Origin: an uncultured Candidatus Saccharibacteria bacterium
GTDB taxonomy: Bacteria > Patescibacteriota > Minisyncoccia > Phycocordibacterales > XYD1-FULL-46-19
Length of the DNA: 64,000 nucleotides
Direction: 5' to 3'
NCBI GenBank assembly: GCA_964539475.1
Contig: CAZIIR010000001.1
Coordinates: 2,869-66,868 of the forward strand
The notes under the pieces were generated by a model that worked only from the letters and a program-made list of their open reading frames with translations, did not search any database and was not told where the DNA came from. Shown here in pieces: positions 19,021-64,000 of the stretch. Position 1 is the first letter of the stretch; the number at the start of each line of letters is the position of its first letter. Both the position numbers and the translations under genes were made by a program.

Positions 19021-19113
19021 TAAATTTATTACAAATTTTGGTTGAATCCAATTGGCCTAAACCAAACGACAAGCACAAGAAAAACAAACACGAAAAAAGA
19101 TAAAATACAAAAT

Positions 19114-26761: not shown

Positions 26762-27040
26762 TTACAAGTTAATCCTCGCTCTATTCTTCGCCTTCGACTG
26801 GAGGCGAAGATTAGTAATTTTATTAGTGCCTCCAGTTGATATTGGTTTCTTGTGATCTACGTCCTTATTCTTCATCATAGCTGATGCGCGTTTAGGTCCG
26901 TATTTCTTGGTAAGAAACACCTCCATATCACGCCTAGCTTTATTTCGCTGCGACCTCTGCTTTATAGTTTTTTTATTATAAAGCTTGTCTTTTGTGTAGT
27001 CTCTTCCGGTTGACTTATTATGGACTCGTTTCTTCTTCAT
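26762..27040 (-). CDS. HNH endonuclease, last gene of the late operon
   Basis: DVDHKKPISTGGTNKITNLRLQSKAKNR HNH motif. Confidence 0.55.
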   Translation of the reverse strand: MKKKRVHNKSTGRDYTKDKLYNKKTIKQRSQRNKARRDMEVFLTKKYGPKRASAMMKNKDVDHKKPISTGGTNKITNLRLQSKAKNRARINL

Positions 27041-30000: not shown

Positions 30001-33000
30001 GCAGCGCCAGCGTCTTCATTAAAGAATGCAAACTCAGGAAATCCCTCTACTCGACTTGCGTAGAACTCGTATTCGTTTTTGTTAGCTTTCTTTTTATAGT
30101 CGATCAAACGCTGTTCAAGTGTGTCAACAGGAATCCTTTCAGTGGCAGGATTTTCCTGTTTGTTGCGAGTATTAACAAAGTCTTGATAATCAGCCAAGAA
30201 AGCCTCTACGTCATTATCGTTAAGGAATGCGTATGGAACACCTTTGAAAGCGTTGTTGATTTGAATTTCTTTACCCATGAGTTTTTGCTCATAAGTTCTC
30301 TTGATTAGTTTAGCTATTTCCTTAGAAGCTTTGGATTTAGATTGTGTAATAATTTCATTATCAGTCACAATCCAATCAAGATCGTTGTCTTCTGTTGGTT
30401 CTACTGGAGCTTTTTGTTTAGGCTGTGATTTGCTAAAACGAATGTCTGGAGAATTAGAGAATCGTTGAGACAAAGGAATTACATTACCTTGATCGTCTTT
30501 TGTAACAGGGTCTGAGGATTTAAATTGAGAAGAATCAAACCCAGCAATTGCGTCTGCTTCTTGCTCTGCGCTTTTTTCTCGTAAAAGAAAACCATCAAAA
30601 CCAGCTTCCAGTAGTTCTTTTTTTAACTGCCCCTTGTTTAATCTCTCAAAAACTGGACTCTGCATTCCATTGCTTGGCTTGGCCTTAACTCCCAACGATT
30701 GGACAAATGTATCAAATTCCTGGTTGCTAACACTTCCAGATCCAAGCTGCCGAAAATCTGCCGGATTTGAAATATTATGATAAAGACTCAATGATTTATC
30801 TCCAAAAAGTTGAGAATACTTTTTGTTTTCTGTGACGTATATCAACCCAACACCATCTGTCTTAATAGGAGATACCAAAAAACTTCTTCCTGTTGAGGTT
30901 AATATATTTCTAATCCTTCCAAATATATTAAAATCAGAATTTGTTGAATGAATAACCATAGATGGTTTGTATCCAGCCTCTTTAGCAGCCTCATCAACCA
31001 TCTTTTGAGCGGTGTCTAAATCACCAGACTTAACTGCCGCCAAGTATTTTTGATCTTTAACATTATTATTAGGCTGTGATTTACTAAATCTAAGTAGTCC
31101 ACGGTTTTGTGGAACACTGAACATGTATCCGGTGTTGGTGTCTTTATTAAACACAGCAGACTTACCTTTTCCGTGCCTACCAACTGTTACTTTTTTAGGT
31201 TGTGAGTTAGTAAGTTTTTTAAGACCGTTAGGAACGCGCTCGTCGTATGCGGCTTTCATTCCTGACTCTTGTTCTATTTTTGGAACTGATTTTTTTAACA
31301 GATCAGCTCTAACTGTTTCTCCATCATAAGTTGTTAAGCGATAGATATTACCGTCTGGTCCTTCTGATTTTATTCCAGGTATAGCTCCTTCGCTTCCATC
31401 TGCCATTGTATAAGTAGTATCAATATCAGTCCTGGGAATCCAATCATCTGGCATTTTAATGTTACCATTATTATACGATGCATTTTCTATAATATCTCCA
31501 TCTTTTTCTGGATTTGCAAGTTCATAAATATCACCAACTTGATCATGCCCCTCAGTCATCATTGCTGTTTCAGCATCGCTTGTAATAATTTTATCAGCAC
31601 CTTGTTCTTGTGCAAAATTAACAGCGGCTTTAAGTGCAAGTGATTCCCAATAGTTTAGGAGCGGAGATGAAATATCTTCTCCAAGACTTTCCCATTTATC
31701 AATAAGAAGAATATTGTCTTCTTTAGATATTACTTCATTTTCTTTATATTTATAAATATCAACACCAGTATCTTCTGCTTCTCGTTTTGTTAAATGCAAT
31801 GAATTAGACGACCCTTTTTTGCTAATAGTAATAGAATCATCTAAAAGCTCTATTACAAGATCAGATTTTTTATAACCATCTAATCTATTTTTGTCTCTAC
31901 TTAATTTTCCAGCCCAATCGCTTTGAACTTCCCATATTTCAAGAATGCGAGTTGGTTTAGTTGCGGTTGTTCCGTCTGGTAGTTTGTTTCCAGTTTGGTA
32001 TTCATGGATACCACCACGAACGAATGCTAGTTGGTTTGCTTTAACACTACCTTCGTAATGCTGAGATTCAAATTTAGGTTTTGGAGTTACTGTTGCTCCT
32101 GTGTCTCTTACGAATACAGTAATTGTTCTATTTTCATCGTAAATTGAAGACTCAGATGTTGTTACAAAATACCTAGGTTCTGGATATTTATTTTGAAACT
32201 CCTCAAGCTTACCTTCCTTTTCTTCTATTGGAAAGGATTCTTTTACAATATATTTATTATCATATAAAGAATTATCTATTTTATTTAAAGAAGATGATTC
32301 TTCACTTGGAAGTGGAACATTCAAACTCAAATCACCAGACCAAATAAGCTTATGTCCAGGCTCGATTTCTTCACCTTTAAGTTGTTCGTTTGAGTATGGA
32401 TCTACTCCGTATTTTCCGGTGGCAGAGCTATTTTTTGCCGCTAAGAAACTACCGGTAGAATATAGTTCAATATATTCATTAGCAAGTTTCTTTGCATTTT
32501 CTGGAAGTTCTTCTAATTTAACACCACCAAATGTTTTAAATACAGCAGTTTCACCAGTAAACATTGGAGCGTCAGGCGCAAACCCAATGGTTTCTAGTTC
32601 GTGCTGAACAACACCAACTGTTCTGCTTAATGCGCCACCACTAAAATCTAACTTATTTATTACAACAGTAGGAACTGTGTCGATCACTTCCGCCAGTTCC
32701 GACATATTAACACGACCATTTTTTGATAAATCGTTAACAAGTTGTGTCAGTGTATCAACCTCAAACTCAGTAGCTCCTGATTTTTTGATCTTAGCTGCAA
32801 GGTTTTGAGAAGGAAGAGTTCCATCTTTAGCCACAACAAGACCCATTACATTTTCAGGGTCTTTTAGTTGGTCAGCAAGACGAAAATCAAACTGGTTGGT
32901 TGAACGACTAAAGCGAGTTGCTGCTGGAGTTTTGTATAAATACTTATCTCCCATTATAACATTTTTATCACTGTTCATTCCTGCGAACTCAAGAACAGCT

Positions 33001-36000
33001 TTTTGAGATGAATTAAGTTTATACTGCTCATCAACAAGGATTGACGATCCGTTTATGACACGAAGATAACCACGTTTAGCCATTTCTGCATAAACCTGAG
33101 TAACCGTCATTCCTTCTATAGCTTCTTCGCCAATAATGTCAATAGCTTTTCCAAGATGGTCTTGATAACCAACATCGATTATTTTTCCATTAGGCGCAAT
33201 CCAAGCTCCGTATCCACGAATAACAGAATCCATGTAAACTGATTGGTGGGATTTGGAATACTGTATTTCTCCATTTGTTGTTATATCAGAATCAAAAGCG
33301 GTCTGAATAATAATATCAAGATCATTAACTGTCCAGTTTGCTGTCCCTGCTTTCAGGAACTTAATACGAATCCAATTAACAATCTTTTCAATAATTGATT
33401 TTGATTCTTTATCCTTTCCTTCTGTTAGTTTAGCAAAAATTTCATCAACAATTTCATTTTCTGTTAAGTTTTCTTTTGCATATGCAGCACTTGTTCTTTC
33501 CCAAACATTTGAACCGTCTCTCCATTTAAGGGTTTTTAAGAATGTAACTAAATTATTAAACCCTTCTTGGCTAATGCCAGAAAGAACGCCACTTAGTTTA
33601 AGATGACCAACAACTTCATGTTTAAATATTCTTTCTACCGCTTCCACATGTGACTCTCCTTTATGTGGAATAATATTATCAAGAATAATTGTAACATTGC
33701 CTTTTTGGACAAAAGCTTCAACGATGCTCGTAACATCTTCACGATTTAATTCCTCGTGTGTGTTTACGATCTTAAGGTCTTTCAGTCCAACGTCTTTTGC
33801 AAGCTCGTTAATTCTGTCAGTCTGCTCTTTTCTGCGAGCTATGTTTTCAGGAGTGTTTTCGCGTTGTTTGGCAAGAGTAGCTTGTGATTCTTCTCTGAAC
33901 TGCTCAATCTCTTGTTGAAGAATATCTAAAATATCAGGCTCGGATTCTTCAACCGGAGCGGTGTCTTGAACAGGAGCAATGGTTTCTTCAATAGCCTGCT
34001 CGACGGTTTGTTTAGGTGCTTTCTCTTTACCTTTCTTGATTGCAGTTTGAATGCTTTGTGCAAACTTATACAAGTCTCCATCGTAAGATGGAACACCATA
34101 TATTTCTGCAAGCTGTGGAAAGTTAGCTTCTGAAAGAAATCCACGACTAATTAAATTATTAAGACGATCTCCAGTAAAGTCACCTTTTTTAGAAAGTGAA
34201 ACAATCTGCATTAATGTTCCTCGATCAACTTCCTGTGCTGGCTGTTGTTCTGGATTTTCTTTTTTAGCAGTGAGTTCAGCAAGCTTAATTCTTGATGCGC
34301 TTTTTTGGCTTTCTGTATATTCACCACTCTTATCATTAATAACTTTATTATGAAGCGCAATACGATCTTCAATTGAAATTTGAACATTTGGCTGAATACG
34401 AGCCTTGTCTGCTTCTAGTTTTCCTATCCAATCTTTAGAGCGTATTTTTTGTTGTTCGGTTGCATTGTCGTCGTTTAATATTTTGTTGTGATAAGCCAAT
34501 GCCTTATCAATGCTTTCAATAGCTGCGCTTGGATTCTCAGTCTCATTGATCTGGTCAATGGTTTCGATTGTTGGAAGAACTGGTTCTGGTTCTACTGTAG
34601 GTTCTACGGTATCTTCTTCAACAGGCTCTACCGCAGGTGTTTCCACAGGCGTTTCCACAGTTTCTTCAACTGGAGTTTCAGCTTTTTTCTTTTTTCGTGA
34701 CGATGGCTTTTTAACTTTTGGAGCAACAACTTTCTTTCCTTCTGGAGTATTTTTATTAAGCTTTTCTGTTGCTTCATCTATTCTGGTTTGATCAATTGTT
34801 TCTGTTTCAACAACTGGAGCTTGTGTTTTTTCCAACTCATTGTAACGAGTTAGCTCAGTTGGTGTAATAGTATTATTAATCTTTTTTTCAAGCAAGTTTT
34901 CAAACTCTGCTTTATCTTTGTTATCAATAACTTCACTATCATCAACAAGAGAAGTCTTAGGCTTAACTTCTGCTGGATCAATTGCTTCCGCTGGTTCTTT
35001 AGTGGCAACTTCATTAGCTTCTCTGACTTGAGCTAATATTTTTATTTTGTTTCCAGTTACAACGACAGGAACCCACCCAACTTGTGGATTAACAGAAGCT
35101 TCGTATCTTTTAGCTAGTCCTTTAAATTTAACAAATCTCCTGTTAGGTGTTACCTGTAATGTAACAGGTGCTCCTAATGCTTTTATTAGGTTGGCGTTTT
35201 TAACCAATGCCATTCCTTCTTGTTTTACATAAATAACATTATCATTCTTTAGTTTGGTGTCATCATTAAGAGTAACATCAAATGGCTTCTTGGTTTGAAG
35301 CTGCTTATCTTCTCCTTTTAATATGAAATTTGTATCATTAGACTCAAACTCAGTTTCTTCTTGAAAAGCAATAGGACCAGCCGATGTTCCATCATCGTTT
35401 ATCTTTTCAAACAATCCTCTTGCTTTTTTTAACCTTTCAAGTTTATCTTTGTCTTTTACTGGATCAAGGTCTTTTTCAATTTTATTAAGCTCATCGGTAT
35501 ATGGCTTATTTGCAATTCTAATTTTAGACTGCTCTGGAAGAACCTCTCCAAGTCTTTCTTTTAGAGTAGCTTCTGCTTTGTCTTTGATCGGAGTTCCAGA
35601 AGGGTCGAGAGATGGCTTGGTATCTCCCTTAATAATTTTATCAGGAGCTTTTGCTGTGACATTAGAATTAGCTATTTCAATAGCCTTGTCGTAGTTACCC
35701 GCTTTGATAGCATCAAAGATTTTTAACTCTTTAGCTTTTGTGTCAGCAATACTAACTGTTTTACCAGCATCAGTTAATTGTGCAATAGTTGCAGAAACAT
35801 TAGCTTGGTTTGATCCTTTTGTTAATCCAGCTATTCCAGTACCAACCATTGCACCAACTGTTCCTTCGACAGCAAATGAACGAGCAAGCTCTCCGATATT
35901 AGTAGCATTCTTTAAATACTGCTCATCTCCAGTTGCATAGTAATCACCAAGGTTTCCGGCTACATCTGTTCCTACTCCACCAAGCAAGCCTTCGTTTAAA

Positions 36001-36968
36001 GAACCAAGAGTAAATCCCTTAACTACAGATGGTAAATATTCTTTAATAACGGCTCTTTTTGCAGCTTCTGTTGTAGCTGCATTAAATGCGCCAGCAAATC
36101 CTTTTACTTTTCCGAAAGCACCACCAAGAATAGACTCCGCTCCACCGTCAATAATACCGGCAGGAATTGCATTAACTGCGGCATCTTGTGCAACTAATTC
36201 ATTACCAGTTCTTTTAAGTTCACGATTATATGCTTCCGTCATATGACGGGCAGTTGACATCGTAAGAAGCGTTGGAGCAACAAGCTCTGGTGCTCCTGCG
36301 GCAGTCATACCAGCAGACAATGCCATTTGGCTAAGAAAATTACCAAGTCCACCAACTACTTGTGAACTAAGATTATTATCAAACTCTGGATTCTCAACCA
36401 AGTTTTTAGCAAAGAACCTATTGGCTTCTTTGTAGTCAGCAAAAAGATCAACACCAAGACCTCTAATTGCCTGTTCTGTGAATCGTTTAACTGAATCAGT
36501 CAAGAAGTCAGGCATACCACCTGGCTTGTAAGAATCCTTGGCAAGCTCACTCTTAATTAAATTATTAGCAAGGTCTTCGATGTGAAATTCAAAATCTTTT
36601 GCTATTGATGGTGCTTTTTTTGCAGAAGAAGGAACAGCATTATCTCTCCAGTCTTCAATAGACTTAACTCTCTTTTCAACAGGATCGTTAGCGTTTATAT
36701 TAATCTGACCATACAAATCGGCAGCCTGCTCAGGAGTTGGTGTAAAACGAGGAATATTTACATTGTGACGATATGATGTAAATATTTCAGCGGATTTATC
36801 ATTAACATACTTTAAATCCTCATCTTCTTTAATTTCGTTTTCATTAACAAATGTTTTACGAAAAGACTCGAAGGCAAGTGGCTTCCGCTCATCTGGAACA
36901 GAATTAAACTCTTCGCTGGCAAGATAACCTCTTACAATGTCTGGATAGTCAAATGAAGTGAGTGGCAT
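27018..36968 (-). CDS. giant (3316-aa) virion or ejection protein carrying a zincin-like HExxH motif, a Gly-rich N-terminal region, a PT/PE-rich linker and internal repeats
   Basis: One uninterrupted ORF. HEVVGH at residues 1117-1122 (about 33603-33620). A TPVE repeat linker. Duplicated ~35-aa units LAYHNKILNDD and IALHNKVINDK. No DxDGD or T7-like RNAP motifs found by eye. Confidence 0.7.
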   Translation of the reverse strand: MPLTSFDYPDIVRGYLASEEFNSVPDERKPLAFESFRKTFVNENEIKEDEDLKYVNDKSAEIFTSYRHNVNIPRFTPTPEQAADLYGQININANDPVEKRVKSIEDWRDNAVPSSAKKAPSIAKDFEFHIEDLANNLIKSELAKDSYKPGGMPDFLTDSVKRFTEQAIRGLGVDLFADYKEANRFFAKNLVENPEFDNNLSSQVVGGLGNFLSQMALSAGMTAAGAPELVAPTLLTMSTARHMTEAYNRELKRTGNELVAQDAAVNAIPAGIIDGGAESILGGAFGKVKGFAGAFNAATTEAAKRAVIKEYLPSVVKGFTLGSLNEGLLGGVGTDVAGNLGDYYATGDEQYLKNATNIGELARSFAVEGTVGAMVGTGIAGLTKGSNQANVSATIAQLTDAGKTVSIADTKAKELKIFDAIKAGNYDKAIEIANSNVTAKAPDKIIKGDTKPSLDPSGTPIKDKAEATLKERLGEVLPEQSKIRIANKPYTDELNKIEKDLDPVKDKDKLERLKKARGLFEKINDDGTSAGPIAFQEETEFESNDTNFILKGEDKQLQTKKPFDVTLNDDTKLKNDNVIYVKQEGMALVKNANLIKALGAPVTLQVTPNRRFVKFKGLAKRYEASVNPQVGWVPVVVTGNKIKILAQVREANEVATKEPAEAIDPAEVKPKTSLVDDSEVIDNKDKAEFENLLEKKINNTITPTELTRYNELEKTQAPVVETETIDQTRIDEATEKLNKNTPEGKKVVAPKVKKPSSRKKKKAETPVEETVETPVETPAVEPVEEDTVEPTVEPEPVLPTIETIDQINETENPSAAIESIDKALAYHNKILNDDNATEQQKIRSKDWIGKLEADKARIQPNVQISIEDRIALHNKVINDKSGEYTESQKSASRIKLAELTAKKENPEQQPAQEVDRGTLMQIVSLSKKGDFTGDRLNNLISRGFLSEANFPQLAEIYGVPSYDGDLYKFAQSIQTAIKKGKEKAPKQTVEQAIEETIAPVQDTAPVEESEPDILDILQQEIEQFREESQATLAKQRENTPENIARRKEQTDRINELAKDVGLKDLKIVNTHEELNREDVTSIVEAFVQKGNVTIILDNIIPHKGESHVEAVERIFKHEVVGHLKLSGVLSGISQEGFNNLVTFLKTLKWRDGSNVWERTSAAYAKENLTENEIVDEIFAKLTEGKDKESKSIIEKIVNWIRIKFLKAGTANWTVNDLDIIIQTAFDSDITTNGEIQYSKSHQSVYMDSVIRGYGAWIAPNGKIIDVGYQDHLGKAIDIIGEEAIEGMTVTQVYAEMAKRGYLRVINGSSILVDEQYKLNSSQKAVLEFAGMNSDKNVIMGDKYLYKTPAATRFSRSTNQFDFRLADQLKDPENVMGLVVAKDGTLPSQNLAAKIKKSGATEFEVDTLTQLVNDLSKNGRVNMSELAEVIDTVPTVVINKLDFSGGALSRTVGVVQHELETIGFAPDAPMFTGETAVFKTFGGVKLEELPENAKKLANEYIELYSTGSFLAAKNSSATGKYGVDPYSNEQLKGEEIEPGHKLIWSGDLSLNVPLPSEESSSLNKIDNSLYDNKYIVKESFPIEEKEGKLEEFQNKYPEPRYFVTTSESSIYDENRTITVFVRDTGATVTPKPKFESQHYEGSVKANQLAFVRGGIHEYQTGNKLPDGTTATKPTRILEIWEVQSDWAGKLSRDKNRLDGYKKSDLVIELLDDSITISKKGSSNSLHLTKREAEDTGVDIYKYKENEVISKEDNILLIDKWESLGEDISSPLLNYWESLALKAAVNFAQEQGADKIITSDAETAMMTEGHDQVGDIYELANPEKDGDIIENASYNNGNIKMPDDWIPRTDIDTTYTMADGSEGAIPGIKSEGPDGNIYRLTTYDGETVRADLLKKSVPKIEQESGMKAAYDERVPNGLKKLTNSQPKKVTVGRHGKGKSAVFNKDTNTGYMFSVPQNRGLLRFSKSQPNNNVKDQKYLAAVKSGDLDTAQKMVDEAAKEAGYKPSMVIHSTNSDFNIFGRIRNILTSTGRSFLVSPIKTDGVGLIYVTENKKYSQLFGDKSLSLYHNISNPADFRQLGSGSVSNQEFDTFVQSLGVKAKPSNGMQSPVFERLNKGQLKKELLEAGFDGFLLREKSAEQEADAIAGFDSSQFKSSDPVTKDDQGNVIPLSQRFSNSPDIRFSKSQPKQKAPVEPTEDNDLDWIVTDNEIITQSKSKASKEIAKLIKRTYEQKLMGKEIQINNAFKGVPYAFLNDNDVEAFLADYQDFVNTRNKQENPATERIPVDTLEQRLIDYKKKANKNEYEFYASRVEGFPEFAFFNEDAGAARKHFQDLIQEKNDDLASVVINDSDIATMDAVVDLQFQAIEAIDDISDIINRGVVDLDSSLVETGNPILDNGIPILREQVAIMRKLFNEYALSLITTDATSLSGGDLRRVYYSLLSLVTDGYPNRLEGFISSETTDIIRNMEATFSDPYGTRKKNSDISKLESNSSQIERLATDGYSYDLLTRLQAPFREGLVLAKRYHEEVITPYIESLQSDVYNGVLDADMANKIGMFGILRQRKLVESPEEGFKASVQWVLDSNKNTIGVYDRDFDAQGKRHQEYLEDNFLSGINYTIENGQLTSDFTPEDVAKFYQNANIFIGDKGIQYADGIVKMYDALKPLSKFTTEFIYGRPFEEIENYIPTMSVIIKGEGDTDFDIAKAQMLTDAQSFSSGQIFYGTNTTGLGSTKSRTRKIGTNRSLVFNINYAGESLGRIAVYDYFTAHARQEMSQLLNHKNKNGKLFAKFLGDPEQKRGRTDAFRSAMNGTWQNVMSQASYMHSYHVATNWVGRKWAQGVLSGLHQLPAQLVSNTTPYFVQHINEPHKIGNYFKAATYLLKHRMGMLEPHQARLVDKVIFEVTHRQQFQEIDKSVNLDINPSSLVEMMKKEMPYLYRAVVGVDKGIENILFKAFRLSDTLSGAPMALAEYLNAEQDSKGTHVRLEDLTYDPVSYIKAIDATERYIGIGDASRRGEYLTNKDAKISIARNLLIAFRSFSINNAVNFGKEMRRLFDSDVSREQKAKSFKYMMGIAAQSVTYTMMAYAVQYGMAAAIVHALKNPEEEEELKKLYSKSQNRMTKNERRTLNAEISMREKNRKVIQNIQNRTNNTRILSIKTVKDAASNMFIPFNLEAVPNIIIHVGSDGPEAETFKAWKKGEIDRIQKLIKRHKALENRKTVTLLSEELANIQMQEFLPAVYEQRTIANIGGSFGGTVEGIVDAIESGSKFFQKPEAISPLDFVNLAAVIGVSQPDIKRYFRASSLIEKSGKEREEQLAAYEEETSP

Positions 36969-36971
36969 ATT

Positions 36972-38840
36972 TTAATCGTTTACAAATTTTGATTCGCTTA
37001 AGTAGTCCATATATCCTGGGACATCTCTAGCTTGGTCTGGCTTATTTTGTTCTAACCAAAAGAAAAACGCTCTATCTGGATCAGCGGCAATTTCTCTTTT
37101 TCTTCTTTCTATTCTTGCTTTTACAATACTCTCATCAAGTGACTCTGTGCTTGCAAACTCACCATAACTAAATGTATTAAAATCAACAATATCAAATGCT
37201 GCTGGTTTTTTATCAAATTCGCTAAGCCATTTAATATACTTTTGATTTACTGCATATGGGTTCTTTTTGTCTGGATTTTTATTTCCAAACATTTCTTCAA
37301 AGTTTCTGCGAAGACCTTTTATTTGTTGGTCTTTTTGAGTTGTAATATTTTTACTACGATCTACAATTTCAATTGAAAGCTTTCCATTTTCATCATACAC
37401 ACTCCCATTAGCTTCAAACACCTTTGCCTTTGGGTTTGATGTCTTTTCAGCGTCAACACTTGCATCCCAAGCTCCAACAGGAGGTGGTGATTCTATTGCA
37501 GGTGCTCCGTATTCCCTTTCAGCCATTGCTTCAAGATGACCAACAATTGCTCTTGTTCTTACCAATGGATCATCTGACTCTGGAATATTTTTAAAATCAT
37601 CACTTTGACGAAACTTAATAATAGCCAAGTCTGCTTTTCTTACAGCAAGATCAATCTTAGCAGGGTCTTCACCAAGACTAAGCATCTGACCCTTATACAT
37701 CTCTATCTTACGCTCAATTACTTTTTCTTGATCGGTATATGTTCCGTTTCCGTATCGTGAAGCAAGAACCTCGCCAATAGAAACAAACGCATCTTTTTGT
37801 GTAACTTTACGATCTTGATTAAGCTGCTCTCTGTCTTTTGGTGCAAGACGAGACTCATACTCTCTTGCAATATTTATATTAAATGGATTCTTTTCGTCAG
37901 ATTGAGCAATAAGCTCACCAACAATCATTTGGTATTGATCAAGAGAATCATACTCTTCAACAACCGGAGGCATTAGCTCCTTAGAGCGAAGCGGTCCAGG
38001 TTTTGTTCCAAACTTTTCAAATGCGTCAACCTCTTCTTCTTTTGGAGATGAATGGTTTTCTTGTGGAACCTTACCAGAGAGTATATCACCATTTTCATCA
38101 AGATTGTAAAGTTCTTCAAGTGGTTGAATTCCATTTTCCCATCCTGCTTTTGGAAGCAATGGATTTGGACCACCCTCTGTTCCATCTGGATTAACCTGTG
38201 CGCTTGGCCATGTTTCTCTTTTAATAGTTAATGGATCAACGCCAGCGGTAAGTTGGCTTGCGGCACTTGAAATTCTTAAACTTCTATCTCTTAGTTCTTT
38301 TCCTTTTTCGCTTATTCTCTTAAGGTCGTTTGTAATACTAATATATTCCTCACTTCCTTTTCTTGGCGCTGCTGCAACTATAACATATCTACCCTTATCT
38401 TTGTCAAAAAACTTTCCAGTTAGCCTCATGTTTAAGGCTTCTGACTCTTTCTGAATATCTTTTTGCTGTTGAGTTAATAGTTCAGCCTCATTGTTTATAG
38501 CAGAAACCAATGGACCAAGTGAAGCAGCTTTTTTTTCTTGATTGGCTCTTAAATCAAGATAATCTTTTTTGTAAGCCATCTCTGCCTTTTGGGCAGCTTC
38601 TCTTATTTGAAGTTCTTTTTGTTGAAGCTTAAGGTTTTCAGTTTTATACCACTCATCAACCTCAATCTGTTTTAAATTGATTGTAGATTTAACCATGTCT
38701 TGAAACATGGCTGATCTATCTCTGTATGACTGACCAATAGCATTAAAACCTTGCGTAATTGCATTAGCAAAGTTCCTGTCGGCTTGGGCTGTTAGTTGAG
38801 CACCATTTAAAATTGTGCTGGCTGTATTTTCAGTTCCCAT
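36972..38840 (-). CDS. internal virion or ejection protein (622 aa), coiled-coil rich
   Basis: Position immediately upstream of the giant gene in the tail/internal-protein cluster. Confidence 0.5.
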   Translation of the reverse strand: MGTENTASTILNGAQLTAQADRNFANAITQGFNAIGQSYRDRSAMFQDMVKSTINLKQIEVDEWYKTENLKLQQKELQIREAAQKAEMAYKKDYLDLRANQEKKAASLGPLVSAINNEAELLTQQQKDIQKESEALNMRLTGKFFDKDKGRYVIVAAAPRKGSEEYISITNDLKRISEKGKELRDRSLRISSAASQLTAGVDPLTIKRETWPSAQVNPDGTEGGPNPLLPKAGWENGIQPLEELYNLDENGDILSGKVPQENHSSPKEEEVDAFEKFGTKPGPLRSKELMPPVVEEYDSLDQYQMIVGELIAQSDEKNPFNINIAREYESRLAPKDREQLNQDRKVTQKDAFVSIGEVLASRYGNGTYTDQEKVIERKIEMYKGQMLSLGEDPAKIDLAVRKADLAIIKFRQSDDFKNIPESDDPLVRTRAIVGHLEAMAEREYGAPAIESPPPVGAWDASVDAEKTSNPKAKVFEANGSVYDENGKLSIEIVDRSKNITTQKDQQIKGLRRNFEEMFGNKNPDKKNPYAVNQKYIKWLSEFDKKPAAFDIVDFNTFSYGEFASTESLDESIVKARIERRKREIAADPDRAFFFWLEQNKPDQARDVPGYMDYLSESKFVND

Positions 38841-38850
38841 AATATTATTA

Positions 38851-40062
38851 TTACGACATTCCTCCGCCTTGGCTGTATCCAGCTATTTGAACTTGCTGTA
38901 ATGATTTATAGTAATCCTGCTGTGTTCGAGAGTTACTATAATTTTGCAACGCTGACGCGCCGCCAGAAATAGCAGAAACCATTGCAGCATTATTATTAGC
39001 CTGACTTGCTTGATCCGCTGATCCCTGAGCTATTTCAGCATTTGAAATATTAAACATGTTTTCACTAAGCATTGCCTGTGAAGACATAAGCTGTGAACCA
39101 AGATTATTAATTGCTTGAGTTCCATAGCTAAGACCAGAGCTTGCAATGTTTTGAGCAAGTCCTGTTTTAACCTTTTCAATATCAAGCAACTGATCTTGAA
39201 CTCTTGTTAAAGAATTACCAAGGTTTTCTTCATTCCTAATACTAAGTTGAGCATTATTGTAAACCTTAGCTGTGTTTGCAGCCTCAAGGTCCATTGCTGT
39301 TTGAAGAGGGCTAATTGGATCAACAGTTCCTTCGCGAGAAAAGAAGTCAGAAATAGCAAGTGAATTAGAAAGACCTTGCTGTGAAAAGCTATAAAGGTTT
39401 TGAGCAGAAAGGTTTGCAAATGTTCCACTTGCTTCTCCTACTGTTAATGCCTTAAGTCCATACATACTGGACCGCATTATTTCTCCCATCTTTCCGGTAA
39501 ACGCATTACCATCAAGAGCAGCAAGAGATGAGTTCATTTGTTGCGCGCTTCGCAACTCATCTTGTGTTCCTCCAGTAATGAAATCAAGATTTCCTTTCTG
39601 AATAGCATCCCTGTATTGAAAATCATTCATTGATAGGCTTTTGGCCTCATCCATAAATGCTGACGCGCTTGGTGCGTCAATTCCTTCAATTACATTAGCA
39701 ATATTATTATAAGTGTTCTCAGCAATACCTCTTGATTCAAGTGCAATTCCTGGAGCTACATTTCCAAACTCAATCAATGAATCTTTTAGGAATCCAATAT
39801 ACTCTTCCTGCAACGCCATGCTTTGCTCGAACTGGCCTTCGGCAATTCCATTCATTGCTGCAAACTGATCGTTCGCAAATCCAGATTGATTTGAAAGTTG
39901 AGCCCTTGAATTTGCTGCATTTTGTTTAGCAGCTTTTTTTGATTGGCTTGCAGAGTAAACACTGTATCCAGTTGCAGCAACACTCGCTACGGCAGCTACT
40001 GTTCCTGCTACGGCAGCTACGGTTCCAAAGACAGGAACAAAAATTAAAAAGTCTAAGATCAT
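38851..40062 (-). CDS. internal virion protein with an N-terminal transmembrane segment and a Q/S/N/A-rich body
   Basis: The N-terminus FLIFVPVFGTVAAVAGTVAAVASVAATG is hydrophobic. Position in the cluster. Confidence 0.45.
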   Translation of the reverse strand: MILDFLIFVPVFGTVAAVAGTVAAVASVAATGYSVYSASQSKKAAKQNAANSRAQLSNQSGFANDQFAAMNGIAEGQFEQSMALQEEYIGFLKDSLIEFGNVAPGIALESRGIAENTYNNIANVIEGIDAPSASAFMDEAKSLSMNDFQYRDAIQKGNLDFITGGTQDELRSAQQMNSSLAALDGNAFTGKMGEIMRSSMYGLKALTVGEASGTFANLSAQNLYSFSQQGLSNSLAISDFFSREGTVDPISPLQTAMDLEAANTAKVYNNAQLSIRNEENLGNSLTRVQDQLLDIEKVKTGLAQNIASSGLSYGTQAINNLGSQLMSSQAMLSENMFNISNAEIAQGSADQASQANNNAAMVSAISGGASALQNYSNSRTQQDYYKSLQQVQIAGYSQGGGMS

Positions 40063-43764: not shown

Positions 43765-44871
43765 TTAAGCCCAAAAGCCTATTAGCGTAACAGTAGAGCT
43801 TGCAACAACTGGTGTTCCAGAAAGAATATTAGATTGAAGTGTAACAGTTCCACCGGAAGTTGTCACAACAAACACTCTTCGTGTAATAAATACAGATTCA
43901 CCTGCTGGAACATAAGCTACCTGTAACTGTGTTCCATTAACAGTAATATTCATTATTGACCCTGTTGCTCCTGCGTCTTCAATTACAAGAATAAGCTCAA
44001 GCTCAGCAACTACAGCACCACCACAAAGAGATATAGATGGAGCATTAAGACCTGCCCATGAATATGCTATAGATGTAGTATGACCTGTGTATAGATTATT
44101 AAGCCTTAAGTCCAATGACTTTCTATCGTGAGCAACACATAATGCTGGCTTTCCTTTTTTTAAGCATCCTTTTTCATCTGTGTAAACAAGATACTTGTGA
44201 GTCAATACATCGTTGTATGTAACGCTTGCTTCATTTGTTATAGACATTTCTGGCATACACAAAGTCCTGCCACCTTGTCCTGTAAATATGCGCTTTATCT
44301 TACGAAGACAAGCCTCGATAAATGTTCCACCAAAAAGAAATGCAGCCTGATGGTCTGGATCGGTATCAAGTTCTGGAGTTGCATAAAAGCAAATCTCATC
44401 TGATTCGTTTAATATTTTTATTACAGAATCAACTCCTTCTGTTTCAAGAAGAGTAAGAAATTGCTCTTTCAGATAGTCAGAGCATCCAAATGGAGGTGCT
44501 GGAAAAATAACCGCTCCTTCTGGAATTACAACTCCGGGCTCTGGATTGCCAGCTACCTTATTAATTGTATTTCCTTTCTCGCATCCATTAAGAACCTTAA
44601 GGACACGCTCTCCGACTTCTGTTATTCGATAGAATCCATACTTGGATTTACCAATTACAATTCCAACATACTGACCAACCCCCCACAGTTTAGCTTGGCA
44701 AACATGAAGATTTGCAATCTTTCCAACTGCTGGAACTGTAAAGTCCTCGATTGATCTATCGTGGAATTTACCAGATTGCGATGTGCATGGTGATCCTTCG
44801 TTCTGAACATCACTACAAAGAGTTGATGCAGGTATAAGGATTTTATCTTCGTTTTGGCATCCGCAGGACAT
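43765..44871 (-). CDS. Cys-rich putative tail protein
   Basis: ORF track. Confidence 0.45.
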   Translation of the reverse strand: MSCGCQNEDKILIPASTLCSDVQNEGSPCTSQSGKFHDRSIEDFTVPAVGKIANLHVCQAKLWGVGQYVGIVIGKSKYGFYRITEVGERVLKVLNGCEKGNTINKVAGNPEPGVVIPEGAVIFPAPPFGCSDYLKEQFLTLLETEGVDSVIKILNESDEICFYATPELDTDPDHQAAFLFGGTFIEACLRKIKRIFTGQGGRTLCMPEMSITNEASVTYNDVLTHKYLVYTDEKGCLKKGKPALCVAHDRKSLDLRLNNLYTGHTTSIAYSWAGLNAPSISLCGGAVVAELELILVIEDAGATGSIMNITVNGTQLQVAYVPAGESVFITRRVFVVTTSGGTVTLQSNILSGTPVVASSTVTLIGFWA

Positions 44872-47007: not shown

Positions 47008-47066
47008 GTTTTGGCTTCATCTAATGTTTTTATTACATTTTATTTAAACCTATCAAAACATAATAA

Positions 47067-50915: not shown

Positions 50916-51566
50916 CTACTCCTCTGTAATCACATCAACTGGACTCACGATGATGTAAAAATCAAGTGCTGGCATTGTGCATGAAGCAGCGTTTGCATTC
51001 AGATACTTAACTTTTACTCCGTAGATATGTCCTGGGAATATGTTGTTAGCTATAGTATTACCTTCGTCCGTGTCTTTGTCATGAAGACTTGTTGACGTAA
51101 GAAGAAGAGTATTACCAATTTGAGCACCTGATGTAAAATCCCAAAATCTTACTTCAAGACTTGCTGCTCCTACATAAGCACCACCACAAGCATTCCAGTC
51201 AATGGTGGAAACACCAATTCCTAAAACCTTGTTATTAAATGGCGATTTTGAATACTGAGTTATTGTTTCATCATTAGGATCAACTGTATCTCCCTCTGGT
51301 GTAGAAAAAAGAATAATACCAGAGGCATAACCTTTCTCCTGAACTCGATCAGTGTATTCCCTAATTGCTGCCGCAATATCAACCAGTGCTCCATACAAAT
51401 TAATAATGCCGTCACCTAAAGTGTAGCATGTATGTTTTGTATATCTAATGAATGTTGACAAAAACGATGGCTTGGTAGCTGTTCTTGCTTCACATGTGCA
51501 ATCTTCTGTTGGCATAGTCGTAATATTTTTATTGTTACAAAAAAGGGGGAGTAGGAATGACCCCAC
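50916..51566 (-). CDS. hypothetical capsid-associated protein (possible ATG start at M18, about 51515)
   Basis: ORF track. Position immediately downstream of the MCP. Confidence 0.4.
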   Translation of the reverse strand: MGSFLLPLFCNNKNITTMPTEDCTCEARTATKPSFLSTFIRYTKHTCYTLGDGIINLYGALVDIAAAIREYTDRVQEKGYASGIILFSTPEGDTVDPNDETITQYSKSPFNNKVLGIGVSTIDWNACGGAYVGAASLEVRFWDFTSGAQIGNTLLLTSTSLHDKDTDEGNTIANNIFPGHIYGVKVKYLNANAASCTMPALDFYIIVSPVDVITEE

Positions 51567-51588
51567 TCCCCCAATTTTTCATCATCTA

Positions 51589-53640
51589 TTAAGCACAAGT
51601 CACACGAATACTCACAGCACCTTCTCGGAATGCGCATCCGAAACCAGCTTCCGCAGTCTGAATGACATAGGTAAGCGTATCTGGATTAACACTAGAGATT
51701 GTTCCGCTAATAGCAGTGCTGATAATAACACCTTCTTCATCGTAGAAGCCGACGTTAACAGTAGCTCCAACATTGCAGTTCAGAGAGCTGTCAAGAACGA
51801 CCTTGATTGCATCTTCTGCTATTGCATCGTCATCAGTGCTATCAGCACAACTAACAACAGTTCCGTAAGTTGGGGTTGCATCTGGACATCCAATGTATGC
51901 AATGCACTCATCAGCAGCAAGCGCAGAGGCAAGCTTGATAAGAACAGTCCAGTCTGGATTCACTACATTCGGGCGGAAGATTTCGACAATCGTAGCCGCG
52001 CGAACCTTGGTAGTATCTCCAGAATCATCATCATTGATGTGAACCTGAATAGTGCTACCGCAGACACAAGAACCAAGAGGAGATTGATTAGGAGCAATCG
52101 AATCTTGGTTTTCCTTGCGAATCTTAACCATGTAATGAAGATTTGCAGCATCACCACAGGATTTGGTGGAGCATTTAACCTTCCTTACACTGGAGGAGCT
52201 AGTAATATTATTACTAACCTTCGTGTTGTTAGGATTGCAACCAATGGTCAGAATCGAGCAACTCTGAGTCTTTGGAACGATGGTGAACACAGGCTGGAGA
52301 TCGCAAGTATTTGGAGCGCGAAGACGAATCTTTTTAGCGCGAGCAATCATACCCCAACTTGCATCAGGATTAAGCATACGGAAGCCCATTTCATACCGCT
52401 TACGGAAGTGAGGCATGTTAAGGTCTTCGTTACACTCCTTATCGTAATCGTTACGATATTCCCAATCGCCCTTACCGGAGATAGGATGAATTGGCATTCC
52501 TTCGATACCAGTCGAGATAACTGGACGACTAAGGATTTCACCAGCACCCTTACCAATGGCTTGAACAAGGAAGAATGGAGCGTTACGATATTCACGGAAG
52601 TCGTAAACAGAACGAACACCAGTGTCAACCTCAACGTCTTTACGACCCTGAACAACAGCGAGTCCACCTTCGGAGCTTTCTGCAAAGCGAGGAAGGGCTG
52701 GAACAGAGCGCATAATAAAATTACCAATAGTATGACGCTCTTGGTCTTCATACACAGAGCCGTTCAACATCGGCACTTTTTGTGTGTATTTAGAACGCTC
52801 GATATACTCTGGATTATCAAGGATTTCCCTCTTATACCAGTCTTCTGGATACCAGAACTCAAACAATGGCTCACCACGCTGACCCTTAGCAATATAGTTA
52901 GGATTGCGAGAATCAGTCAATGCGGAGCCGAAGTTATCCAAGAAGGACAAGTCAACAGGCATGATGTTGCTTGGGTTTCCAACCTGAGGATACAACGGAT
53001 TCATGTAAGAGTAGCGATACCCTTGCAGAGCATTGTATGGACTAAAGTTTTCAACTGGAACAATATTGCCAGAACCATCGTTCTCGACTTCAAGAGCCCA
53101 TTTGTGACCAGTCATCCGAATGAGAGCCATGGTATAGAATATATTCATTACCTGCTCGTCAACAGAGAACCGCTCCTTCACAATCATTTCGGCAATTTGC
53201 TTTGCCTGCATGGAAGTGCGGATATTAGCGATACACATACGACGGGTTTTGAAGCCGGTCTTATACATTTCCAATTCAGGAATAGCAGAGATGCCTCCCT
53301 GTGGAATTTCGCAGTAATCCGTATGACATTCATTAGCAGAACCAGGAGAGCAAATCTCCATGGAACGCTGAAAGATCCCCATGTCAAAGGGAATATGAGC
53401 AGAGTGATAAACTCGACCCAATTCGGTTGTTCCGCTCCAGTCTTTCCACTCACGAACTGGAAACAGTCCGGTGAGGTATTTATACATGGAGTCATACATG
53501 ACTTTCATTTGTTCCACCTTCTCGCTCCAAAGAGCGTTAGGTCCGTCTTTAAAAACCAAGTCAATAACTTGGTCGCGAGACATGTCGTCTCCACAGGCTT
53601 CTACCTGATCTATCCATTCGTCTGATGTTAAGTGTGGCAT
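51589..53640 (-). CDS. major capsid protein candidate with a Cys/Ser/Thr-rich C-terminal extension
   Basis: Position after the scaffold gene, size, operon orientation and composition. The 725-aa antisense ORF is rejected. Confidence 0.5.
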   Translation of the reverse strand: MPHLTSDEWIDQVEACGDDMSRDQVIDLVFKDGPNALWSEKVEQMKVMYDSMYKYLTGLFPVREWKDWSGTTELGRVYHSAHIPFDMGIFQRSMEICSPGSANECHTDYCEIPQGGISAIPELEMYKTGFKTRRMCIANIRTSMQAKQIAEMIVKERFSVDEQVMNIFYTMALIRMTGHKWALEVENDGSGNIVPVENFSPYNALQGYRYSYMNPLYPQVGNPSNIMPVDLSFLDNFGSALTDSRNPNYIAKGQRGEPLFEFWYPEDWYKREILDNPEYIERSKYTQKVPMLNGSVYEDQERHTIGNFIMRSVPALPRFAESSEGGLAVVQGRKDVEVDTGVRSVYDFREYRNAPFFLVQAIGKGAGEILSRPVISTGIEGMPIHPISGKGDWEYRNDYDKECNEDLNMPHFRKRYEMGFRMLNPDASWGMIARAKKIRLRAPNTCDLQPVFTIVPKTQSCSILTIGCNPNNTKVSNNITSSSSVRKVKCSTKSCGDAANLHYMVKIRKENQDSIAPNQSPLGSCVCGSTIQVHINDDDSGDTTKVRAATIVEIFRPNVVNPDWTVLIKLASALAADECIAYIGCPDATPTYGTVVSCADSTDDDAIAEDAIKVVLDSSLNCNVGATVNVGFYDEEGVIISTAISGTISSVNPDTLTYVIQTAEAGFGCAFREGAVSIRVTCA

Positions 53641-53808
53641 CTGATTTTGATTTTAATGTTTTTATTACGATTATCGTCCTGTTTGATGCCAACCAAACTT
53701 ATAGCGGCAAACCCTCTTGTAGCCAACTCAAGATAAGGCATTAGGTCTTACTACTTCCGGATTTCAATGATGACTATACTACAGTATTAAGAATAAGCAA
53801 CTAATATT

Positions 53809-62621: not shown

Positions 62622-62881
62622 TTTGCTTTTGCTGGTGCTCCAAGGACAAGTGCTCCTGTAAGCTCATCAATATGAATCACAGCTTTAACTTGCTCTATAA
62701 CATATTTATTAGTTCCTATCTCAATCTCCTTACCAGTGCTTCCTTCATGTGGTGGCACTGCAATAAAATCCCCCTTGTCCACTTTGTGGAATCCTTTGCT
62801 TCCAATAAACTGATGCTGCTCATTAAGTAAATGATATATCATAATCCGTTGCCTCCTGTTAGTTTGTTTACCGATAGCCAA
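62618..62881 (-). CDS. hypothetical protein
   Basis: ORF track. Confidence 0.4.
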   Translation of the reverse strand: MAIGKQTNRRQRIMIYHLLNEQHQFIGSKGFHKVDKGDFIAVPPHEGSTGKEIEIGTNKYVIEQVKAVIHIDELTGALVLGAPAKAK

Positions 62882-63216
62882 TTAGCCATAGCTGTATTAA
62901 TGTTACCATTCGCATTATAGCACAGTATTATGTATCGGTCAAATGATTTTATTTCATTTCCGCTTTTTGTAGTAATGGTCCTAATTAATATATTAGAACC
63001 CATTAACTCCTCTAGTTTCTTACGGCACAACTCTCCATTCTCTGACTTAAGCTCTGGTGCATATACGTCTTTTAATCTAAACTGATGAGTAACTGATACG
63101 TCGAATCCTAATTCAACGCGTGCTGTTATAGTGTCCCCATCGTGGACATTCACAACTGTAGCACTGTAATCCGCTGAATATCCAAGTGAGTATATGAGTA
63201 GTATGAGCCATCGCAT
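62839..63216 (-). CDS. SNase/thermonuclease-like nuclease with a signal peptide
   Basis: VHDGDTITARVELG...RLKDVYAPE, as in the staphylococcal-nuclease DGDT...D.PE motif. N-terminal MRWLILLIYSLG. Confidence 0.5.
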   Translation of the reverse strand: MRWLILLIYSLGYSADYSATVVNVHDGDTITARVELGFDVSVTHQFRLKDVYAPELKSENGELCRKKLEELMGSNILIRTITTKSGNEIKSFDRYIILCYNANGNINTAMANWLSVNKLTGGNGL

Positions 63217-63339
63217 ATATCACAATACCGTAGTATTTTTATTACGCAAGTGAAATAATGGATTACTTGAATGGGACCCTAGTGGTGGAATGTGACGAAT
63301 GGAAAAATGATATATGCGAAGTATGGGGTTCTTTTATAA

Positions 63340-63470
63340 GTGGAGAGGAGGTGATGAATAATACCCCACTATATCGGGAGGGAGGGAGTGGGGTGTATGG
63401 AGTGGAGGTGAGGGGAGGTAATACTACTCTATTGGTGAGAGGGAGGGGGAGATGTCCCCACCCACCCGCG
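63340..63470 (+). repeat. G-rich tract (GGGAGG/GGGG runs) in otherwise AT-rich DNA
   Basis: ggagggagtggggtgtatggagtggaggtgaggggagg ... gggagggggag read directly. The overlapping ORFs are junk. Confidence 0.5.
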
Positions 63471-63839
63471 TTTCAAATTTCCTCGCGCCATTTAGAGAAT
63501 CTTTCTATTCCCCCACCAAGGGATTCCTTACTTTTCCTCCCATGAAATTTCCTAGTAAAAATATTACAACCTTCACTTTCAACAGTTTAGCGGTGTGGTG
63601 CTGGCAGTGTTGGCAATCCAAGTTGGAAAGCTGGCAGGCTGGCGAGCCATGGAAGGGTATGGCCAAAGTGTAACTATTTTACCAGAGAAGTGCGAAATAG
63701 CTTGAATGTCATTCTGGGCTGGAGTAGGTTACGACGTTGGTGTCTATTGTTTCTTACACTTCGGAGCTTGTCTCTTGAGAGTCGGAATCAGTAGGTCACT
63801 GAGGGGATAGCGAAAAGCTCCCCAAGTCTCCGTTCCTTC

Positions 63840-63935
63840 CCATTAGCTTGTCGGCTAGCCAGTAGTGGCTAGCTAGTCCATCCCCTAGCCTTTCCATTCT
63901 GGAATAGGCAGGTAAACAAATGGACTAGCTCAAAC
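63840..63935 (+). repeat. cluster of GCTAGC/CTAGTCC palindromes and a 9-bp inverted repeat (gctagtcca / tggactagc). Iteron-like
   Basis: Read from the sequence. Upstream of the late operon. Confidence 0.45.
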
Positions 63936-64000
63936 ACTACTATGTCACGCCGTAATAAAATCGTTAGTCCATCCGAAGTAATCGCAGACACCGCAGCTCA

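Follow-up and report, generated by a model that had tools for sequence, protein, structure and literature searches.

In phage lambda the cos region is ordered cosQ-cosN-cosB and lies upstream of Nu1/A; a core and a symmetric element are followed by repeated binding sites and then by the operon which holds the terminase genes. The left end of T7 carries a terminal repeat with a palindrome, short repeat arrays, the early promoters and, before the first early gene, the RNase III site R0.3. Phage N4 has its genome ends at a divergent junction, with terminal repeats of 390-440 bp (PMC3715699). In the crAss-like Cellulophaga phage phi14:2, long non-coding RNAs of unknown function arise from intergenic regions at the early end; these regions are transcribed rightward, and abundantly, from the earliest time point (bioRxiv 10.1101/2020.03.07.982082). 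The 64,000-nt stretch of contig CAZIIR010000001.1 analysed here (the window) is a fragment of a phage genome with plus-strand genes at 1-26759 and minus-strand genes at 27018-63216. Positions 63217-63941, near its right-hand end, are a non-coding control region between the divergent late (leftward) and early (rightward) gene blocks. The best model for this region, to which we give somewhat less than an even chance, is a rightward early transcription start module with a structured leader RNA. Start-module, packaging or terminal, and origin functions are not mutually exclusive.

The window phage (W) belongs to an uncultivated, novel lineage of phages of about 69 kb. Among the products of its minus-strand block are a protein of 3316 aa and one of 715 aa; the latter has a Walker A motif (GGGGQGKT) and is taken to be TerL. 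With TerL as the anchor, the junctions of relatives (contigs with L-numbers) were fetched at 35-99% TerL identity; contig P0002 stops short of the junction. The same order of parts is found in L008, L086, L087, L090, L015, L024, L027, L029, L051, L017, L033 and L053. Read in the early direction, the start of the first late gene is followed by short tandem repeats, a G/C hairpin and a GCGC box; a core lies about 35 nt past the box and is followed by an AT-rich element, GC-rich non-coding DNA and a small rightward gene. This bears out the initial annotation, which placed a junction of divergent early and late blocks here and expected it to hold special cis elements. The GC content of 63217-64000 is 46%, versus 36.7% for the window. 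Chimeric assembly was ruled out as the cause because relatives carry the same architecture in one piece.

The most conserved part of the junction is an element of about 135 nt at 63437-63573 (+), here called the conserved element (CE), which comprises the hairpin, a C-tract, the GCGC box and the core. The hairpin (GGGGA-GATG-TCCCC) and the C-tract CCCCACCCACCC lie at 63446-63467. The arms of the hairpin change in sequence yet stay complementary across at least six lineages: at the same position L086 has GGGGTGGGG/CCCCACCCC, L087 has GGTGGGA/TCCCACC, L024 has GGTGGGG/CCCCACC, L029 has TGGTGG/CCACCA, and both L015 and L027 have GGGT/ACCC. The GCGC box is at 63484-63489 (+). The invariant core, the 13-nt AGGGATTCCTTAC at 63519-63531 (+), carries GATTCCTT and has the consensus (A)A(T/G)RGATTCCTT(A/G)C across relatives. 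In the alignment of the element (A5), 11 lineages which span the 35-99% range of TerL identity show no variation at the GC of the box or at AA..GATT.CTT in the core. A sequence model of the CE (R2, about 146 positions), run over 499 kb of related DNA, finds exactly one copy at each locus, and every copy points in the early direction; there are 13 matches, with E-values from 7.6e-24 to 3.1e-11, and weak matches in L057 (E=0.009) and at the extreme end of L087. Within the window the core is unique. A 13-nt sequence which stays invariant while TerL drifts to 35% identity offers a handle on the start of infection, replication or packaging, and it can be used as a lineage marker. Outside the lineage, a 22-base degenerate pattern (CCCACCC..GCGC..GGATTCCTTAC) had 28 matches in 596 Gb of genomes, all of them chance-like and in GC-rich coding DNA. 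In IMG/VR it had four matches; those in L054, L056 and L057 are intergenic, and by count alone they are indistinguishable from chance. L054 (a 64.9-kb contig), L056 and L057 are seemingly unrelated viral contigs, each with the CE-like pattern shortly before a first gene; of the three, L054 and L057 share a relationship.

The core is followed at 63552-63567 (+) by an AT-rich palindromic element, CTAGTAAAAATATTAC, which is a candidate rightward promoter or melting element. AT-rich TAAT/ATTA elements are found after the core in most relatives. Positions 63552-63566 are a two-mismatch copy of the motif which precedes late genes (see below); this copy points rightward and lies just ahead of the structured RNA. 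The CTAGTAAAAATATTAC region is also mirrored with 63230-63249, as inverted repeat I1.

The leader, or non-coding RNA, of the putative first rightward transcript extends over about 370 nt, from 63572 to 63941 (+). Compensatory changes in two clades indicate that it is a structured cis-acting RNA, of a generic class. The 382-nt segment 63560-63941 folds with -137 kcal/mol (z=-3.7) on the plus strand, versus -115 kcal/mol (z=-2.7) on the minus strand. The alignment of W and L008 over 63572-63858 has 79 predicted pairs; 100% of these are paired in both sequences and none is broken. Six pairs have changed on both sides, and four have one-sided changes which keep the pairing. The latter are three G-C/G-U changes and one U-A/U-G change, and therefore fit an RNA of the plus strand only. 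As good a result was reached by 4 of 500 shuffles, and slid controls gave 0-1. The hairpin at 63803-63823 is an example: W has GGGG-AT-AGC-GAAAA-GCT-CCCC where L008 has GAACC-GT-AGC-GAAAA-GCT-GGTTC. In the sister clade (L086, L090 and L091), 24 of 78 pairs are compensatory; none of 500 shuffles equalled this, and slid controls gave 3-9. The long-range helix which closes the structure matches across the clades with one compensatory pair (CAGGC/GCUUG versus CAGAC/GUUUG).

The leader ends in an 81-nt terminal hairpin at 63861-63941 (+), one base before the ATG at 63942; the fold of 63845-63960 has -44.2 kcal/mol (z=-5.6). The palindromes CTAGCTAG (63869-63876) and CCCTAGCC (63883-63890) lie within this hairpin, and GGCTAGCC (63853-63860) lies just 5' of it. 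Five copies of CTAG in 63855-63925 make up the densest cluster of the window, where CTAG is three-fold under-represented (72 observed versus 215 expected). The hairpin also contains a perfect 11-bp stem, inverted repeat I8, between 63871-63881 and 63920-63930. The clustered palindromes and the inverted repeat had been read from the sequence as possible marks of a genome end, packaging signal or origin. They are where they were said to be and, like the other features described, go beyond chance; the repeat is 11 bp rather than 9 bp long, and the palindromes are better read as arms of an RNA hairpin beside the early start codon. Palindromes in phage intergenic DNA can thus be the arms of RNA hairpins. 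L086, L090 and L091 have an analogous hairpin which abuts the ATG (helix 8); 12 of its 22 pairs show compensatory changes, and its sequence differs from that of W. Among Rfam 15 families, the gathering score was reached in the window solely by a tRNA-Met elsewhere; the best match in 63100-64000 was ar14, with 24.4 bits versus a gathering score of 58.8. The leader, which has compensatory support but no Rfam family, is a candidate for a new class of phage RNA and is comparable to the early non-coding RNAs of phi14:2.

A precedent is phi14:2, which also has long non-coding stretches at its early end and genes without Shine-Dalgarno sites, as is typical of Bacteroidota. Transcription was measured in phi14:2 but is predicted in W, and the likeness drawn here is one of position. 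In the window, none of 54 gene starts has a Shine-Dalgarno site; gene leaders are A-rich throughout, a pattern typical of Bacteroidota genes. On these two grounds, the host probably does not use Shine-Dalgarno sites.

In the most probable mechanism, the repeats together with the hairpin and the rest of the CE would serve as an assembly site at the level of DNA. A phage protein would bind the lineage-specific repeats, and a conserved machine would act on the core and the AT-rich element, launching rightward early transcription. The transcript would begin near 63570-63585 and fold into the leader, and the terminal hairpin may control stability, processing or translation of the first early gene. 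On the other side, a late promoter or initiation motif would abut the nuclease gene. The same module may double as the start of replication or packaging.

Several points weigh against this model. The start of rightward transcription is a predicted rather than a mapped position, and scans of the region for sigma-70 promoters and for Bacteroidota -33/-7 promoters found nothing above chance. A promoter for a general polymerase would be expected in several copies; the CE is single-copy, and a pac, cos or ori site would account for that no less well. The repeat-binding protein is postulated, with no candidate named. A covariance model built from the three sister-clade leaders (R1) fails to retrieve the W leader, so the homology of the RNA across clades rests on manual comparison. 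The covariation comes from two sequences in the W clade and from three in the sister clade; the terminal hairpin of W is a single sequence because L008 ends at about 63854.

The repeats differ in character from the CE. W has two tandem units of about 57-60 nt at 63339-63452 (+), which are G-rich and C-poor and contain the direct-repeat families D1, D3 and D4; each unit has a TAATAC(N4)CTAT motif followed by G-runs. Positions 63314-63529 are the sole place in the window with at least four runs of three or more G per 73 nt. The G-tract GGGAGGGAGGGAGTGGGG at 63376-63393 is the sole canonical G-quadruplex (G4) motif, defined as (G3+ N1-7)x3 G3+, on either strand of the 64 kb. The initial annotation singled out this tract as able to form a quadruplex. 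The motif is indeed present and unique, and a second lineage, L015, has (GGGGTATT)n at the homologous position. It is found in 2 of 11 lineages, however; L008, which is about 96% identical in the late block, keeps two copies of ATACCCCTATAG but lacks it, and unrelated repeats take its place elsewhere. W and L008 are just 42% identical over 63302-63443, with indels of 25 nt and 3 nt. The quadruplex is therefore not the conserved property of the region, and it is highly improbable that the folded G-tract is itself the functional signal. The tandem repeat unit differs in every lineage (L015, GGGGTATT; L027, CTTAGGAA; L024, GGTGGTGGTAAA; L029, TGGTGGATGAACGGAT; L086, AATAATTTGACAGGA), and is 8-16 nt long in relatives versus two units of about 58 nt in W. 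The repeat zone is fast-evolving, with the G-tract as one lineage's version of it; striking G-tracts in phage intergenic DNA can be fast-evolving repeat filler.

The order of the parts also suggests a genome end or packaging site. The repeats, hairpin and core would then be a concatemer junction or terminase recognition region, with the physical ends or a direct terminal repeat located here; the variable repeats would be TerS-type binding sites beside the terminase operon, and the hairpin and core would be the site of cutting or recognition. This is a possible but rather unlikely reading. The CE is single-copy with a fixed orientation, and the order of parts matches that of lambda: a core, a symmetric element, lineage-specific repeats and then the operon with TerL. 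Lambda cos is likewise single-copy, directional and upstream of the terminase operon. W differs from it in sequence, which shows no similarity, in the first gene of the operon, which is that of a nuclease rather than a recognisable TerS, and in the rightward RNA and early gene on the other side; cohesive ends and nicks are known from lambda. The layout of the genome also resembles that of N4, with its ends at a divergent junction. At least seven contigs from six lineages (L008, L024, L027, L029, L051, L053 and L087) end in the CE or within about 350 nt of it. In contrast, W, L015, L017/L021, L086 and L033 read straight through the junction. The break points are at no fixed distance: some contigs stop within the CE itself and others up to 334 nt past it. 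Several breaks fall in tandem arrays (L053), repeats (L090) or a palindrome (L019 and L022, of the L017 lineage); metagenome assemblies would also fragment at a hypervariable zone between conserved flanks. The repeats of W and L008 differ strongly, yet the genes of the small late proteins next to them have a DNA identity of 91-97%.

T7 offers a comparison for both the end and the leader. Its left end shares with the junctions of the lineage short imperfect repeat arrays, G/C palindromes (CCCC(T/C)AGGGGGG in L015 and L027) and a long hairpin before the first early gene. The genes of T7 all run in one direction and it has its own RNA polymerase (RNAP) and terminal repeats, whereas the blocks of W are divergent and no T7-type RNAP was found.

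Direct repeats which adjoin a conserved core and an AT-rich element could also be part of a replication origin. The tandem repeats would be iterons for a lineage-specific initiator, and the hairpin, core and AT-rich element would be a site of unwinding or priming; with its G-rich non-template strand, the region may lend itself to an R-loop primer. There is one copy of the element, and 9 of 11 lineages are depleted of C in the 180 nt upstream of the CE; the fraction of C on the early strand is 0.01-0.14 there, versus 0.18 genome-wide. Long AT-rich or alternating purine-pyrimidine tracts follow the CE in L015; in L017, L029 and L051 they are in the same non-coding region, mostly on the late-gene side. 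An origin is nevertheless unlikely. Iteron-type origins have at least three phased repeats of 17-22 bp, an AT-rich element and boxes for host factors, whereas W has two units of about 58 nt and relatives have units of 8-16 nt with no common helical phasing. The AT-rich element of the window is only about 16 nt long, there is no DnaA box within two mismatches, and no initiator gene was identified. The GC skew is confounded by the switch in gene orientation.

Promoters for a phage polymerase have been considered as well. The T7 promoter has the 23-bp consensus TAATACGACTCACTATAGGGAGA, which the motifs TAATACCCCACTATA and TAATACTACTCTAT of the repeat units resemble; these motifs with their G-runs might be T7-type promoters, and the two copies of ATACCCCTATAG in L008 would agree with this. 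Alternatively, the G/C hairpin might be an N4-type promoter for an injected polymerase. The 3316-aa protein of the virion block is cysteine-free, as is the virion RNA polymerase (vRNAP) of LUZ7, LIT1 and PEV2 according to a published report (PMC3715699). The N4 vRNAP promoter is a hairpin with a stem of 5-7 bp and a 3-nt loop with a central purine, and is found in several copies in the early region (PMC3715699). The hairpin of W has a 5-bp stem, a 4-nt loop and a single copy, versus three promoters with 3-nt loops in N4. The T7-like motif is found in the window only at 63359-63373 and 63419-63433, although T7-type promoters come in multiple copies with an RNAP gene; neither a single-subunit RNAP gene nor similarity to vRNAP was detected among the genes scanned. 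Either form of phage-polymerase promoter thus has very little probability.

The likeness to N4-like phages (Schitoviridae) goes beyond the hairpin. It includes a genome of about 70 kb, divergent blocks, a giant cysteine-free protein of the virion block at the far late end and a hairpin heading the early region (PMC3715699). W differs in that no homology to vRNAP can be detected and there is a single hairpin in place of three, with a loop of 4 nt and a stem of G and C only; moreover, no structural gene of the lineage is related by sequence to those of N4-like phages. A joint reading would make the lineage a deeply divergent analogue of the N4-like phages in a host without Shine-Dalgarno sites. 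The 3316-aa protein, which lacks cysteine, would be a novel kind of polymerase that is injected, and the single G/C hairpin with GATTCCTT would be its one promoter at the entry end, beside G-rich terminal repeats resembling telomeres; the structured RNA would represent a novel class of phage RNAs made immediately early. Taken as a whole, this reading is improbable.

The 3316-aa protein (27018-36968, -) contains no cysteine, versus about 44 expected from the other late proteins; the neighbouring proteins at 36972-38840 (622 aa) and 38851-40062 (403 aa) are cysteine-free too. Its position and size recall N4 vRNAP. It has no match in Pfam, PHROG, PDB, phage genomes or protein databases, and a search for homologues with its C-terminal third returned nothing. 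The motif DTDFDIA at residues 2691-2697 is similar to DFDID, the catalytic motif of crAss-like gp66, without being a match to it.

The first gene of the leftward block, as annotated initially, is a 125-aa open reading frame (ORF) with an ATG start at 62839-63216 (-). Its product matches PHROG 452, 'endonuclease' (E=4.8e-15), and a profile of the protein and its homologues (A4) matches staphylococcal thermonuclease chains in the PDB (E=2.9e-9) over profile positions 34-126, the OB-fold core. D26-G-D28-T, R47, E55 and R94 are invariant in A4, and the motifs align with IDGDT, RLLLVDTPE and YGR of thermonuclease; by alignment, the catalytic and Ca2+ residues of staphylococcal nuclease (D21, R35, D40, E43 and R87) are represented. 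The single sequence has no Pfam SNase match, and a single-sequence AlphaFold2 model (pLDDT 42.6) was too poor for a fold search. On profile and motif similarity the protein is a homologue of staphylococcal nuclease, so the fold first proposed for it holds. It shares the OB-fold core and the DGDT, R..(A/T)PE and YGR-type motifs with the thermonuclease family, but differs in its length of a mere 125 aa and in a hydrophobic N-terminal segment which is specific to this lineage. The N-terminus, MRWLILLIYSLGYSA, has a hydrophobic stretch after a basic residue; a signal peptide, which had also been proposed, is plausible. Homologues in IMG/VR have a non-hydrophobic N-terminal extension in its place.

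The late motif GTAATAAAAATACTA is found at 63231-63245 (-), 14 nt upstream of the nuclease ATG. The window has four exact copies of GTAATAAAAAYAYTA, all on the minus strand: 63231-63245, 53654-53668, 47022-47036 and 44410-44424. Three of the four lie 13-14 nt upstream of the ATGs of late genes, at 63216, 53640 and 47007, and the motif is a candidate late promoter or translation-initiation element. With up to two mismatches there are 71 matches versus 2 expected, and just 11 of these are near gene starts; solely the four exact copies count as evidence because most of the mismatched ones reflect A-rich coding strands. A perfect 12-bp inverted repeat, TCGCATATATCA/TGATATATGCGA, flanks the late motif at 63211-63222 and 63308-63319. 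The nuclease start codon lies partly or wholly within its left arm, and L008 has not conserved the right arm.

The non-coding stretch had been described as lacking any credible ORF up to 64000. This stands for 63217-63941, which has no conserved ORF, but not for the last 59 nt: an ATG at 63942 opens a frame (63942-64000, +; translation MSRRNKIVSPSEVIADTAA...) which has no stop and is cut by the window. It is the 5' end of the first rightward gene. This equivalence is by position, as just 19 residues are visible; the positional equivalents in L015, L017, L024, L086, L090 and L091 are 122-134 aa long, and genes of 120-134 aa are seen there among relatives as a whole. The two plus-strand ORFs over the G-run, at 63258-63545 and 63452-63673, were rightly dismissed as junk: they have no family matches, and indels of 25 nt and 19 nt disrupt both in L008.

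The genes of the plus-strand block include those of two helicases, a DHH phosphoesterase and a MazG-like enzyme; the majority of the late proteins have no PHROG or Pfam family. Searches of 50,697 sequenced phages (INPHARED) with DNA and protein found no match to the window DNA, TerL or the 3316-aa protein, and the junction region had no match there either. An exact look-up of the window's own proteins found none on record, and IMG/VR contains no exact match to patterns of 32-43 nt from the junction region. In metagenomes there are 80 relatives of TerL, and the contigs which carry them reach 69-71 kb; the lineage is thus widespread, yet nothing related to it can be detected in about 50,000 sequenced phages.

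The early non-coding DNA of relatives has a second conserved motif, TCGCTTCGCTC, at about 4900 and 5190 in L086, 7600 in L015 and 3130-3170 in L017. The form in L086 is GTATTTGACTCGCTTCGCTCGGGGC, which occurs twice. The motif was not found in the window and is perhaps beyond 64000. In L053, a 65-kb IMG/VR contig, positions 1-170, at the end of the contig, hold about 13 tandem copies of a 14-15-nt unit (GGCATCACCTGAAC or GGCATCACTGAAAC), about 120 nt past the CE. L017 has a palindrome with perfect 29-bp arms, and this is where the sequences of L019 and L022 stop. Long tracts in which purines and pyrimidines alternate (CGCACGCACA..., GTATGTGTGT...) also occur in the junctions of relatives. These palindrome and tract features lie at about 3100-3230 and 3420-3590 in L017, 240-330 in L029 and 480-720 in L051.

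Away from the junction, the tRNA-Sec model gives 29.6 bits, versus a gathering score of 47, for a tRNA-like element at 3659-3738 (+) with the anticodon loop AAUGAAA; ARAGORN does not find this element. The surrounding stretch of about 450 nt (3300-3760) is gene-free and also has a 15-bp inverted repeat, CTCAGTTCAGCACAC/GTGTGCTGAACTGAG. Long ORFs overlap on both strands in two places: 19042-20610 (+, 522 aa) with 19057-20223 (-, 388 aa), and 51448-53625 (+, 725 aa) with 51589-53640 (-, 683 aa). In relatives, the frame called as a gene is the one of 683 aa, on the late strand.

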